Shown one piece after another: positions 20,428-33,945 of a stretch of 64,000 nt of DNA. The notes under the pieces were generated by a model that ran no database searches, had not been told where the DNA came from, and was given only the letters and a program-made list of their open reading frames with translations. This DNA is from Styela clava (Eukaryota). Location: positions 1 to 64,000 of the forward strand of contig NW_027556593.1 of assembly GCF_964204865.1 (NCBI RefSeq). The letters run 5' to 3'. Position numbers and translations under genes: made by a program. The stretch's first letter is position 1. Every line of letters starts with the position of its first letter.

Positions 20428-20501
20428 TGGCAGGGATAGTAGGACTCGAACCCACACCAAAAGCTTTGAAGGCTTTTGTTCTACCTTTAAACTATACCCC
20501 T
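20428..20501 (-). tRNA. tRNA-Trp(UCA), decodes UGA
   Basis: AAAGC-CT-TCA-AA-GCTTT anticodon arm, short variable loop, GTTCGA, encoded CCA. Confidence 0.92.
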
Positions 20502-20506
20502 AAAAA

Positions 20507-20583
20507 TGGTACCCACGGGAGGACTCAAACCTCCAACCTAAGGCTTAGAACACCCTTACTCTAATCAATTGAGCTACGTGGGT
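20507..20583 (-). tRNA. tRNA-Arg(UCU)
   Basis: AGGGT-GT-TCT-AA-GCCTT; acceptor ACCCACG/CGTGGGT; CCA. Confidence 0.8.
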
Positions 20584-20588
20584 AAAAA

Positions 20589-20664
20589 TGGTCGGAAAGA
20601 GAGGACTTGAACCTATGATCTCTCGGACCCAAACCGAGTGCTTTTCCATCTAAGCTACTTTCCG
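20589..20664 (-). tRNA. tRNA-Pro(UGG)
   Basis: CTCGG-TT-TGG-GT-CCGAG; CCA. Confidence 0.92.
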
Positions 20665-20668
20665 ATAA

Positions 20669-20743
20669 TGGCTGGGGTAGCTAGATTCGAACTAGCGAAT
20701 GGTGGTCCCAAAAACCACTGCCTTTCCACTTGGCGACACCCCA
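20669..20743 (-). tRNA. tRNA-Gln(UUG)
   Basis: GTGGT-TT-TTG-GG-ACCAC; U1-A72; CCA. Confidence 0.92.
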
Positions 20744-20746
20744 AAA

Positions 20747-20822
20747 TGGTAGAGCCATTGGGGATCGAACCCAAGACCTCACGCTTATAAAGCGAGCGCT
20801 ATAACCACTAAGCTATGGCTCT
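20747..20822 (-). tRNA. tRNA-Ile(UAU)
   Basis: CTCGC-TT-TAT-AA-GCGTG; acceptor AGAGCCA/TGGCTCT, A73; CCA. Confidence 0.88.
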
Positions 20823-20825
20823 ATA

Positions 20826-20899
20826 TGGAGCAGATGAGAGGAATCGAACCTCCATAGTCAGATTGGAAATCTGAAGTTCTACCATTAAACTACATCTGC
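20826..20899 (-). tRNA. tRNA-Gly(UCC)
   Basis: TCAGA-TT-TCC-AA-TCTGA; U73; CCA. Confidence 0.93.
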
Positions 20900-20902
20900 T
20901 AA

Positions 20903-20979
20903 TGGTGCTGGTTACAGGCCTCGAACCTGTACTCGTCCGTTTACAAGACGGGTGCTTTGCCACATTAAGCTAAACCAGC
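20903..20979 (-). tRNA. tRNA-Thr(UGU)
   Basis: CCCGT-CT-TGT-AA-ACGGA; CCA. Confidence 0.9.
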
Positions 20980-20982
20980 AAA

Positions 20983-21068
20983 TGGTGGAGGAGGAGAGAT
21001 TCGAACTCCCGTATCTAAAAAGAATCTGATTTACAGTCAGACGCGTTTAACCACTTCGCTACTCCTCC
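20983..21068 (-). tRNA. tRNA-Tyr(GUA)
   Basis: TCTGA-CT-GTA-AA-TCAGA; long variable arm; CCA. Confidence 0.93.
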
Positions 21069-21069
21069 G

Positions 21070-21145
21070 TGGCGGACCTGACGAGAATCGAACTCGCTAT
21101 CTCCTCTTAGACAGAGAGGCATGTCATCCATTACACCACAGATCC
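21070..21145 (-). tRNA. tRNA-Asp(GUC)
   Basis: CCTCT-CT-GTC-TA-AGAGG; G73; CCA. Confidence 0.9.
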
Positions 21146-21148
21146 AAA

Positions 21149-21437
21149 TGGTGGAGATGGCGGGATTTGCACCCACTTCTTGACGCAATTTGATCATGAT
21201 TGTTTAATTTCGCTTTATATGATCATTCAAACGAAACTTAGTTGCTATTTACGAAATTGTCCCGCAACTGACAATTAAGGGGTTTTTTTGTTATTATATT
21301 CTCTAATATGACGGTGAAAACTGAAACGTGTTATTAGATACCAATGAGGATTCATTCATCAACATTGAAAGGTTGTTTGTAGTTGTTTTTGCATTTGTTA
21401 AAAAAAGAAACTACGCCAATCGAACCTATACATCCCC
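21149..21437 (-). ncRNA. ssrA: tmRNA (289 nt)
   Basis: 5' GGGGATG pairs with CATCTCC-ACCA including G3.U; T-arm; helix 2 TTGGCGTA/TGCGTCAA; tag ORF 21392-21303; two pseudoknots. Confidence 0.9.
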
Positions 21438-26450: not shown

Positions 26451-27065
26451 TATTTTTTTCCTCCTTTTAGGTTTGATCCTATATATTTTACAACAGCGCT
26501 TAAAAGTTTCACTGTGTCATTTTGATTGTGAATTAGTTTTGTTATTTGTAACTTCATTAATTCAATTTCTTTTCGTGAATTATTTTCCATTGGTTTTTTT
26601 CTCCTTAGAAGTGATCTTATCTGTTTTCTTCTTTATTTCTATATTTTTATTATATCACATTATTTTTTTTCTTTCATTATTTTTTTCCTCACTCTCAGGG
26701 AGGTCCTCTTCTTGTTGCGATAATATCTTCATAATTATCTATACAATGTTTAAATGCTATAATCATATTTTTATACTGCTCTTGCATATCCATTTCTTTT
26801 TGTATTCTTTCTTCACATTCATCGTAAAGTCTGCTACTATTCGCTAAATGTTCTCTCAATAAGTTTAAATCGAGACCCCATGGGACAATGCTATTTTCAA
26901 TCTCATATATATATTCTTCTACTGTCTTTTTTTTTACTGGTTGGTTTTCACCATCTTTTTCCTTCATTTTTTGAATTATTGCTCACATAAGCAATTGTTT
27001 ATAAAACTTTAAACTTTCGTATTTTTTTATTACGTTATCCACGTAGTTTTCTACTTTTTTGTACA

Positions 27066-28319
27066 TTATTTTTCTTTTCCTCCTTTTGAAATAATCAAAT
27101 GTTTTTCTCATAATTTTTTAAATTTAATCATGTCTAATTTGAAACTATTTTTCTTACTTATTAATTTAATCAATAATAAAGGTACTCCTTTTGATGTAAC
27201 CAAATCAAATATTTTTTCTCCTTTTAAAACATAACCTTTTTGTATGTTTAATAAATCACTTACTGTTTTTGTTGTCATTATTTTTCAAAAAACCTTTTCT
27301 TCTTTCATTACTATTGTATCATATTCTTTTTCGAAAAGTTTAAATAAAAATGGTCCTCGATAATTTAAGAAGTAACCACGCATTGAAGCATTTCGAATTA
27401 AATGTCGTACAACCGAACCGTGACGTTTTTTGAAATCAATATATTTTTCTTTAATCAAGTCTTTCAAACAATATTTTATCGCTAATACATGATCACAAAT
27501 AATTTTAACATTGATATCATTTGTAGTTTTCTTTTCAATTTTGTCAGCAATATCAGTGTATTCTTTCAACTGGAAAGGTGTTTTAAAGTTGTTAACAACA
27601 ATCAACAATCTTTCCAATCCGGCTCCAGTATCTATATTTTTTTTGTTTGACATAGTATAATTACCTTCACCATCATTTAACATATAAGAAAATACAACGT
27701 TTCATATTTCTAAATATCTGTCATTATCAATATTTTCTTTCAATAAATCAATTCCTTTGTTTTCTTTATCTAACTGCTGTCCCAAATCATAAAAAAATTC
27801 AACATTTGTTCCACATGGGCCAACTCCTAAATCTCAAAAATTAGTTGTTTTATCTCCTGAAATCAAATGGTCTTCTTCAACACCTATATTTAACAATATT
27901 TGTTTAGTTTCATCGTCCGAAAACAAATACGTAATGTACAATTTTTGAATGTCCAAATTCAATCATTTTGGCGATGTTAAAAATTCTAATGCTCACGTTA
28001 ACGATTCTTTTTTTTGATAATCATTAAATGAAAAGTTACCTAACATGCGAAAAAACGTTAAATGTCGATTAGTTTTACCTATTAAAGAGATGTCGTTTGT
28101 TCGTATTACATCTTGTACGTTAAAAAGTCGTGAATGCGGTGGTGTTTTTTCTCCTAAAAAATAAGGTCTCAACGCTGAAACGCCTCTCAACGCTGAAACG
28201 CCTGAATTTACAAATAATAATGAACCTTCTTTGTTAATTATCGATTTGTTTTCTATTTTAAAATGTTTCTTTGAAGTTCAAAACTGACTTCATTTTTCTA
28301 TTAATTCTGTTTTATTCAT
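27066..28319 (-). CDS. alaS: Alanyl-tRNA synthetase, aminoacylation half only (417 aa; no editing or C-Ala domain)
   Basis: LLFVNSGV, Q..IRTNDI..IG...RHLTFFRMLGNFSF.DY.K, NFW..G.GPCG..EFFYD, RYLEIWNVVF, IDTGAGLERL, IICDH; own RBS and coupled stop. Confidence 0.93.
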
Positions 28320-28349
28320 TTTGTTTTTTTCTTTTCTCCTATATTTTTA

Positions 28350-28604
28350 TTATAACATACTTTTTTTTATTTTTGTTTCTAATTTTTCAATTCAATACAA
28401 AGCCACCGGAATCACGACGGCAAGCCCTAACAAAATACGGCCCAACCAATCACCTACCTCGCGTACATTCGATACTGTAATACCATAAATATATAGTACA
28501 TATATTACGCCCATATATATAAATATAATAGTGAGTGCGATTACAGTTGTAAGCAACAACAACCACACCAGATTAAACAATATGGTTAGTGTTTGTTTAT
28601 TCAT
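28350..28604 (-). CDS. Small membrane protein
   Basis: Two hydrophobic stretches. Confidence 0.6.
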
Positions 28605-33868: not shown

Positions 33869-33945
33869 GGTGAGTGTGGCGAATCGGTTAACGCTCCGGA
33901 TTGTGGGTCCGGTACGAGTGGGTTCGACTCCCACCGCTTACCCCA
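33869..33945 (+). tRNA. tRNA-His(GUG)
   Basis: CCGGA-TT-GTG-GG-TCCGG; G-1:C73; CCA. Confidence 0.92.

Follow-up and report, generated by a model that had tools for sequence, protein, structure and literature searches.

Introduction

AlaRS is thought to keep a four-domain form, and the loss of its editing activity is costly in E. coli and mice (PMC6918089). The closest described system is the mini-AlaRS of Tupanvirus (TuAlaRS, 461 aa). As characterized in PMC10036535, TuAlaRS is specific for G3:U70, acts on tRNA and a microhelix to a similar degree, complements a yeast ALA1 knockout, and is not toxic to yeast in the presence of 5 mM extra serine. It groups with eukaryotic AlaRS, and in 2023 its authors could name no other natural synthetase able to function with just the aminoacylation domain. 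The same paper reports that N461, a comparable fragment of the E. coli enzyme, binds tRNA poorly and gives no yeast rescue, so truncation alone is no guarantee of function. In Mollicutes, editing loss is reported for LeuRS, PheRS, and ThrRS, and AlaX-type proteins are reported to be absent (PMC4014445). Wider editing loss in host-restricted bacteria is cited by reviews (PMC11415595, PMC10057733), and a word search of PMC5861454 gave no mention of AlaRS. In the huge-phage annotation table, AlaRS among the rows searched amounts to two rows, both in one plasmid-labelled element (PMC7162821).

In the literature searched for phage-borne or cellular editing-free AlaRS, the Tupanvirus enzyme was the only case found, and no bacteriophage mini-AlaRS was found; cellular truncations may already be in print. 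A 2018 study by Melnikov et al. reportedly deals with host-restricted organisms that have lost editing, and truncations of cellular AlaRS may already be described there, supplements included.

Here we describe a real, selected, stand-alone aminoacylation half of AlaRS, of bacterial origin, in a 45-kb phage. Like TuAlaRS as described in PMC10036535, the protein is virus-encoded, is made up of only a catalytic domain and a tRNA-recognition domain, and ends in a long terminal helix. Both proteins also lack the Asn/Asp pair that reads G3:U70 (P321/T416 there; K291/T369 here), with Thr at the Asp site in each. The settings differ, as Tupanvirus is a 1.4-1.5-Mb amoeba virus with all 20 synthetases, whereas the gene described here belongs to a 45-kb bacteriophage that has no viral tRNA-Ala but, in its type A form, a tmRNA. 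Moreover, the phage AlaRS is of bacterial (mollicute) origin and ~50 aa shorter than the eukaryotic Tupanvirus enzyme, its Asn/Asp loss is common to the full-length enzymes of its host family, and its activity is a prediction. Canonical bacterial AlaRS (TIGR00344; structures 3hxu and 1riq) shares the class II fold and active-site motifs with the phage protein, which lacks the editing (HxxxH...CxxxH) and C-Ala domains. As in the split AlaRS of Nanoarchaeum equitans, the N-terminal part is encoded as its own gene (PMC10036535). As in the huge phages, a synthetase, tRNAs, and a tmRNA proposed to support translation are phage-borne, but those genomes exceed 200 kb and this one is 45 kb (PMC7162821).

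Results

The phage and its copies

The window analysed here is a stretch of 64,000 nucleotides, contig C191 of a 377-Mb assembly in 380 contigs. It contains ~1.4 units of a 45.3-kb repeat that is read with TGA as Trp. Genes for a terminase, a thymidine kinase, and a thymidylate kinase are found in the repeat, together with a portal-like protein that scores below the Pfam cut-off, and the RNA genes of the window are ten tRNAs and one tmRNA. The repeat represents a tailed phage infecting a code-4 bacterium and was assembled together with the eukaryote; the phage's host is likely a mycoplasma-like symbiont. At least 24 full copies of the mini-AlaRS gene and one cut copy are present, all on small contigs of the assembly. 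A largely different phage of ~46 kb (type B; contigs C216 and C318) has the AlaRS module in common with type A, to which the window copy belongs.

Comparisons were made with five genomes (G001-G005) of the Oceanoplasmataceae, a family of symbionts of marine invertebrates that includes the species of G001, Ca. Spiroplasma holothuricola (PMC11535214). No bacterial host chromosome was found in the assembly, which gave no SmpB match and no code-4 AspRS match; the four AspRS-type matches in it lie at megabase positions and lack TGA stops. Four public runs, compared with a family alaS gene, gave only short scattered pieces over the editing region. Among the CRISPR matches listed for the five family genomes and 19.9 kb of phage, none linked the phage convincingly to a host; a further 209 matches were weaker than those listed. 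A query of IMG/VR with the single AlaRS protein found no closer phage relative, a GenBank phage set gave 28 matches, all at 22-47% identity, and the best 80 loci of a metagenome scan were 30-40% identical. In run X2, record 13, a diverged alaS homologue at ~10x depth lies over window positions 27684-28074; its motif 2 region is identical to the phage gene at 120 of 135 bases, versus 84-95 for the family genomes. It is either the true host's gene or a third phage. Eukaryote AlaRS was also observed, as two near-tandem, apparently intronless 861-codon frames at G000 C4:15402371-15422198 and another of 1004 codons on C2.

A stand-alone aminoacylation half

The mini-AlaRS ORF is located at 27066..28319 on the minus strand and encodes 417 aa here and 411 aa in other copies. 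It is open only with TGA=Trp (8 TGA), and the plus strand is full of stops. Residues 7-411 match positions 3-428 of 552 in PF01411 (E 3.4e-73), and residues 7-416 match positions 3-431 of 847 in TIGR00344, at 269 bits against a family cut-off of 457. The protein stops after TIGR00344 position 431, and the editing domain and C-Ala domain of the canonical four-domain enzyme are missing in cis. An AlphaFold model has a mean pLDDT of 90.8 and superimposes on two engineered fragments, the E. coli catalytic fragment 3hxu with a TM of 0.86 and the Aquifex fragment 1riq with a TM of 0.80.

The class II catalytic domain, with motifs 1-3 and the alanine/ATP pocket, is present by the PF01411 match, the kept motif columns, and the fold match. 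Both phage alleles retain 18 of 18 positions checked in the catalytic core and at the beginning of the helical domain: R67, D70, F84, M86, W156, G161, G164, E198, W200, N201, V203, D224, G226, G228, E230, R231, D270, and H271. The roles of these residues are those described in the AlaRS literature, mapped through the 3hxu alignment. A preliminary description of this DNA had stated that the catalytic motifs are retained, and this agrees with the 18 unchanged positions, the PF01411 match, and the fold match to 3hxu. The helical tRNA-recognition domain is also present, with helices over residues 246-410 modelled at high pLDDT, and contains two internal deletions of roughly 12-17 residues each. 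Phage-only changes at otherwise conserved sites are E85R (Glu in 35 of 35 other rows), P165T, R294H/Q, and Y296S/W; R273L, at a site otherwise conserved, is found in the type A allele only. In place of the G3:U70-reading Asn and Asp (N303/D400 in E. coli; PMC10036535), the phage protein has K291 and T369.

The ORF was described as stopping at about residue 417, at the end of the helical region. The position in the fold holds, with a final helix at 391-410, but the length of 417 includes an 18-nt tandem duplication that is absent from the usual 411-aa protein. The extra copy (28167..28184, minus strand; GVSALR duplicated) is found in this window copy only. Of the other full-length copies listed for the assembly, 23 of 23 lack it, and so do the main contigs that span the site in two public runs (93.6/93.6 and 191.4/191.4 depth units). 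These runs may be the source sample and so are not independent support for the phage itself. The duplication is either an assembly error or a rare variant.

At its 3' end the gene has a coupled junction (27064..27083, minus strand), in which the Shine-Dalgarno of the next gene is combined with an overlapping TAATG. The junction GGAGGAAAAGAAAAATAATG is present, as first described, but is not special evidence. Eleven junctions of this design, the standard one of the phage, lie between 15000 and 29000, and the last residues GGKEK are therefore simply the ribosome-binding site of the next gene. The coupled junction is evidence of normal operon placement only. The downstream coupled ORF (MYKKVENY..., 26677..27066, minus strand) has no Pfam or PHROG match and no editing motif, and is swapped for another gene in one sister-phage copy. 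On the 5' side, an extended -10 promoter-like TGTTATAAT and AGGAG lie at 28336..28357 (minus strand), in type A copies only. The TGTTATAAT site matches the consensus and is a putative promoter; the extended -10 pattern occurs at 13 sites in the phage unit versus 8 expected, a weak excess, and a sigma-70 scan gave 18 sites versus 17 expected.

The editing and C-Ala families were absent from all 38 window ORFs scanned. Across the whole assembly, PF07973 gave five matches among 11 candidates scored, none on any phage contig, and all five lie at megabase positions without TGA stops. A second gene with editing and C-Ala domains, as in a split AlaRS, was not found in the same genome, and the protein is a natural stand-alone aminoacylation half without either domain. 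The absence of these domains elsewhere, noted at the outset, is thus borne out. A separate editing subunit encoded in the sequence gap had been raised as a refuting possibility; the gap, a 372-base N stretch, lies ~850 bases upstream of the AlaRS gene and not at its 3' end, and no such subunit was found in the 38 window ORFs scanned or on phage contigs.

Purifying selection on the phage gene

Selection was analysed by the Nei-Gojobori method with code 4 in seven of the 24 copies, picked to span the allele classes. The dN/dS ratio was 0.04-0.15 in every allele pair with amino-acid changes, although these pairs are not independent. Between C25 (type A) and C216 (type B), dS was 0.234 and dN 0.030, giving a ratio of 0.129 (Fisher p 3.5e-18); the type A versus type B counts were 49.8 synonymous differences over 248 sites and 29.2 non-synonymous differences over 985. 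By part, the ratio was 0.04 for residues 1-236 (catalytic) and 0.19 for the remainder (Fisher p 0.006 and 0.001), with the 236/237 boundary, the end of motif 3, chosen after the data were seen. Nineteen of the 23 amino-acid differences between the types fall in residues 237-358, including RHGSVVRH versus KQGWVVRN, a stretch that is also high in synonymous divergence (dS 0.50). The last 51 codons have no changes between C25 and C318b.

The gene is intact in three gene neighbourhoods, and its stop remains at the same helix in spite of a swapped downstream gene. All seven translated copies are open to this C-terminal helix, and the only internal stop among the 24 full-length copies is one TAA, which ends the frame two codons earlier at the swapped junction. 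The phage mini-AlaRS is kept intact by purifying selection. Neutral evolution, with dN/dS near 1, had been named as a refuting outcome and is not what the allele pairs display; the view of a domesticated rather than decaying gene stands.

Origin within the Oceanoplasmataceae

The best match among proteins of 226-720 aa is P0003 (463 aa, 42% BLAST identity), from Ca. Spiroplasma holothuricola (G001; locus L022). P0003 is the only AlaRS match in G001 and ends in a real stop followed by unrelated ORFs, and PF07973 has no match in G001 at E 0.1. AlaRS is full-length in four of the five family genomes. The tRNA-Ala of G001, the one tRNA-Ala among the G001 tRNAs read, carries G3:U70, and a tRNA-Ile(TAT) is common to G001 and the phage.

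A careful tree built from 24 rows places both phage alleles, at 100/100 support, within a clade that holds G001-G005, P0140, P0141, and P0143. The phage protein and P0003 belong to this clade, share the motifs DLGVGPCG and LVTSxGxP, and are cut at the same helix, with no PF07973 in G001. In contrast to the phage protein, P0003 is chromosomal, keeps the segments deleted in the phage, and has Glu at position 85. The sister of the phage gene is G001 in quick trees (87 and 86) and the full-length P0140 in the careful tree (83/29). In AU tests, both G001 (p 0.336) and G003/G005/P0141 (p 0.084) survived as possible sisters. The first description of the locus had taken the trimming to have happened in the phage. 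Inheritance from an already trimmed host is not rejected (AU p=0.34), and the two origins of the cut are about equally open. The branch of the phage lineage is 1.43 long, versus 0.4-0.9 for its family relatives.

The Asp that reads G3:U70 is Thr or Ser in six of six cellular family rows and the Asn is replaced in five of six, full-length housekeeping proteins included, so this loss predates the phage. By its place in the tree, the phage gene originated inside the AlaRS clade of the family of Ca. Spiroplasma holothuricola. The domain search and phylogeny against mollicute AlaS proposed earlier thus return the N-terminal half of PF01411 and TIGR00344 and a position within the Oceanoplasmataceae, and the AlaRS phylogeny is gene-based evidence for the host family of the phage. 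We infer an independent origin of the phage and Tupanvirus mini-AlaRS, because the Tupanvirus enzyme was grouped with eukaryotes and the phage gene nests in a mollicute family, in a tree without Tupanvirus.

The tmRNA and tRNAs of the phage

A tmRNA is located at 21149..21437 (minus strand). Its acceptor stem has G1:C72, G2:C71, G3:U70, and G4:C69, followed by A73 and CCA, which makes it a candidate substrate. The match to the full Rfam model RF00023 (E 2.8e-12, 38 bits) lies below the gathering score of 47, and ARAGORN run on the window did not call it. Besides the tRNA-like ends with G3:U70, A73, and CCA, it contains an internal tag frame, likely AKTTTNNLSMLMNESSLVSNNTFQFSPSY followed by a stop (21303..21392, minus strand), with the resume codon chosen by eye. 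Its folding energy is unremarkable (z -1.2). The tmRNA assumed in the preliminary description is therefore present, at a score below the Rfam gathering level.

A cluster of nine tRNAs (Asp, Tyr, Thr, Gly, Ile-TAT, Gln, Pro, Arg, Trp-TCA) lies at 20428..21145 on the minus strand and contains no tRNA-Ala; none was found in any phage variant examined. The phage tRNA-Tyr has acceptor pairs 1, 2, and 4 and A73 as in the tmRNA, but A3:U70. A tRNA-His with G3:U70, G-1, and C73 is located at 33869..33945 (plus strand); its third pair is the alanine identity pair, and the tRNA-His of G001 has G3:C70. The tRNA-Ile(TAT) (20747-20822, minus strand) and tRNA-Trp(TCA) (20428-20501, minus strand) are found in a phage in which, over 17 genes, ATA accounts for 216 of 749 Ile codons and TGA for 161 of 164 Trp codons.

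An identical tmRNA is present at 20 places in the assembly (20 of 20 candidates scored). In two type A contigs not among these 20 places, C98 and C137, the tmRNA locus holds an unrelated body that has the same acceptor stem, and the AlaRS gene of C98 has zero mismatches to that of the window. Type A thus retains a tmRNA, since the locus keeps one despite the unrelated body. The alternating bodies are found at L349:3622-3971 and L350:3591-3940 (G000 C98, C137), versus 21149-21437 in the window; their tags are ANISIPLENYAYSYAV and, by eye, AKTTT...FSPSY, and a tRNA-Val replaces the tRNA-Asp in the same swap.

Searches for a tmRNA in type B found none, whether with Rfam across the whole of C216 or with BLAST and ARAGORN on both C216 and C318. 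The tRNAs of type B are a tRNA-Gly and a weak tRNA-Lys-like element only; this tRNA-Lys(TTT)-like element (L015:8458-8525) lies upstream of the tRNA-Gly, has no CCA, and is detected only at a lowered ARAGORN threshold. AlaRS and tmRNA do not strictly co-occur, as C216 and C318 carry the gene and no tmRNA. A phage tmRNA is thus not needed to retain the gene. All five family genomes have a tmRNA match, three of them over the cut-off, and the host tmRNA could be the target in type B. The phage tmRNA and the tRNA-Ala of G001 have G1:C72, G2:C71, G3:U70, and A73 in common. With stems so alike, the sequence offers no obvious way to charge one alone.

Editing-free AlaRS in other cells and viruses

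Among 398 scored genomes sampled from the Mycoplasmatales, 19 lack any PF07973 match. In seven of the 19 the alaS gene was read, as six closed ORFs of 438-465 aa and one frameshifted gene, and the other 12 may be incomplete. Besides G001, there are five small genomes with closed alaS ORFs of 438-455 aa and no PF07973, and four of the six short genes form their own clade. The frameshifted gene corresponds to a protein labelled by a source as coming from a fungal endosymbiont. In G015, alaS lies in two places ~30 kb apart (L179:3049-7107 and L180:1939-3435), where the N-terminal part forms an in-frame fusion with a class I (ValRS-like) synthetase and the part for editing and C-Ala is separate; this is either a rearrangement or a misassembly. 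Three other genomes (G037, G045, and G057) encode a full alaS and a second stand-alone ORF that matches the editing/C-Ala half. Outside Mollicutes there are short AlaRS-related proteins, the P0264 cluster (400 aa) and L209:424-1806 (460 aa), in which the C-terminus lies at the same helix and the canonical Asn/Asp are retained; a source labels one of them as Ca. Limnocylindrales.

In IMG/VR, 28 AlaRS loci comprise 13 full-length genes, four cut by a contig end, five broken or chimeric, and six closed without an editing motif. With one or two neighbours examined at each locus, a host gene, transposase, or integrase lies next to 10 of the 13 full-length genes and the other three gave no hit, a pattern consistent with host DNA at prophage edges. 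Of the six short genes, five (430, 417, 665, 261, and 313 aa) are found on viral contigs of 103-232 kb, and the context of the sixth is ambiguous. Two of these contigs have a tmRNA and a tRNA-Ala, and three, which are 62-76% complete, have no tRNA or tmRNA match. A quick tree places the five viral proteins apart from the window gene, with long branches that make three placements unsure. Judging from these sequences, repeated independent loss in viruses is likely. The 261- and 313-aa AlaRS-like proteins, on jumbo-phage contigs (L225:10052-10837 and L226:9851-10792; putative starts), keep the motif 2 and 3 residues. The 665-aa AlaRS, on a 232-kb viral contig (L220:9977-11974), lacks PF07973 and has a C-terminal extension, as if the editing part had been excised.

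Discussion

On balance, we favour the reading that the gene is a stand-alone aminoacylation half of AlaRS, conserved in a code-4 phage, that likely charges G3:U70 stems without proofreading of its own. The predicted enzyme would activate alanine at its intact class II site and load it onto G3:U70 stems, namely the tRNA-Ala and tmRNA of the host and the phage tmRNA where present. Both RNAs are expected substrates, as they share pairs 1-3 and A73. Substrate binding may need only the acceptor stem, which is what was measured for the Tupanvirus mini-AlaRS, and catalytic activity of the phage protein is likewise presumed. The benefit would be to keep up charged tRNA-Ala and tmRNA, alongside the phage tRNAs, in a host with a minimal translation apparatus. 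Errors would be tolerable if a full-length host AlaRS re-edits in trans, the editing domain being kept in four of five family genomes, or if the host already lives without editing, as in one of five. The preliminary description suggested that Ser/Gly mistranslation could rise, and this is possible. The effect may be small, as the Tupanvirus enzyme was not toxic with added serine (PMC10036535) and full-length AlaRS can resample charged tRNA (PMC6918089). Counting against this reading are the long branch, E85R and the other phage-only changes, the internal deletions, and the poor performance of E. coli N461. In addition, the benefit of an extra AlaRS is not evident, as no phage variant examined encodes a tRNA-Ala.

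The preliminary description had proposed that editing may be dispensable if the substrate is the tmRNA. In such a tmRNA-dedicated charger, the first residue in ribosome rescue would hardly matter and editing would be free to go. In type A, no RNA other than the tmRNA has the complete alanine identity, and a tmRNA is kept at the locus even with its body replaced and the acceptor stem unchanged. Acceptor-only binding, if it resembles that of the Tupanvirus enzyme, would suit a tmRNA. The differences between the tmRNA-bearing and tmRNA-less phages are concentrated in residues 237-358 (19 of 23), but this is where dS is also high. The two jumbo-phage contigs with very short AlaRS have a tmRNA, but they also encode tRNA-Ala, and three of the five viral contigs have no tmRNA, though they are only 62-76% complete. 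The proposal is weakened by type B, where C216 and C318 keep the conserved gene without a tmRNA (the host tmRNA could still serve), and by cells in which the same truncated form is the only AlaRS detected, such as G001 with its equally cut AlaRS beside a G3:U70 tRNA-Ala. We therefore consider it unlikely.

It is quite unlikely, in our view, that the enzyme serves in counter-defence or as a backup, replacing or shielding a host AlaRS or tRNA-Ala pool disabled by a defence system. Phage tRNAs can counter host nucleases. The gene sits among small non-structural genes behind the extended -10 promoter-like site and has been exchanged between otherwise dissimilar phages. The tRNA-binding part evolves fast (dN/dS 0.19 versus 0.04), although a helical domain would in any case be expected to be under looser constraint. 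According to PMC11535214, CRISPR and restriction systems are abundant in the host family.

A relaxed or changed specificity, by which the enzyme would mischarge tRNA-Tyr (A3:U70) or tRNA-His (G3:U70) and diversify or poison the proteome, is very unlikely. It would account for K291/T369 in place of Asn/Asp, for R294 and Y296 being altered only in the phage among family rows, and for the G3:U70 of the phage tRNA-His; the N. equitans alpha subunit alone is reported not to be G3:U70-specific (PMC10036535). However, the Asp was lost in six of six and the Asn in five of six cellular family proteins, before the phage, and the Tupanvirus enzyme stays specific without them (PMC10036535). The phage tRNA-His carries G-1 and C73, but A73 is part of the Ala identity in bacteria (PMC9976931), and both tRNA-Tyr and tRNA-His are absent in type B.

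Some AlaRS enzymes are reported to have non-translational activities at the adenylation site. Such a use here, as in dinucleotide synthesis or acyl transfer to proteins or small molecules, appears highly improbable. It would agree with a catalytic domain far more constrained than the tRNA-recognition domain (0.04 versus 0.19), but the latter is still under purifying selection, with its last 51 codons unchanged between C25 and C318b, and folds with high confidence, and no partner enzyme adjoins the gene.

The long branch, the internal deletions, and the 18-nt duplication peculiar to the window copy could be read as signs of a captured host gene in decay or of an artefact of assembly. This reading is ruled out by the dN/dS of 0.04-0.15 and the intact copies, seven of them translated and open to the same helix, and by a 3' end that public-run contigs cover with no joint or gap listed.

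The gene adds a second natural case of a mini-AlaRS, of bacterial type, from a phage of very small size and with naturally occurring alleles under selection. The same cut is also found in unrelated viral contigs and in cells where the short form is the only AlaRS found. The reading of G3:U70 without the usual Asn/Asp or C-Ala can now be tested with small proteins, as can cell life without alanine proofreading and tmRNA charging by phages themselves. A broader and rather doubtful extension is that these proteins form a recurrent class that emerged on several occasions, in phages and as the only AlaRS of certain minimal symbionts, and that here the enzyme has been re-tuned to an acceptor-stem-only mode favouring the tmRNA, its own or the host's, with alleles A and B tuned to different RNA partners. 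If the enzyme does favour tmRNA in this way, a 45-kb virus would directly control ribosome rescue.
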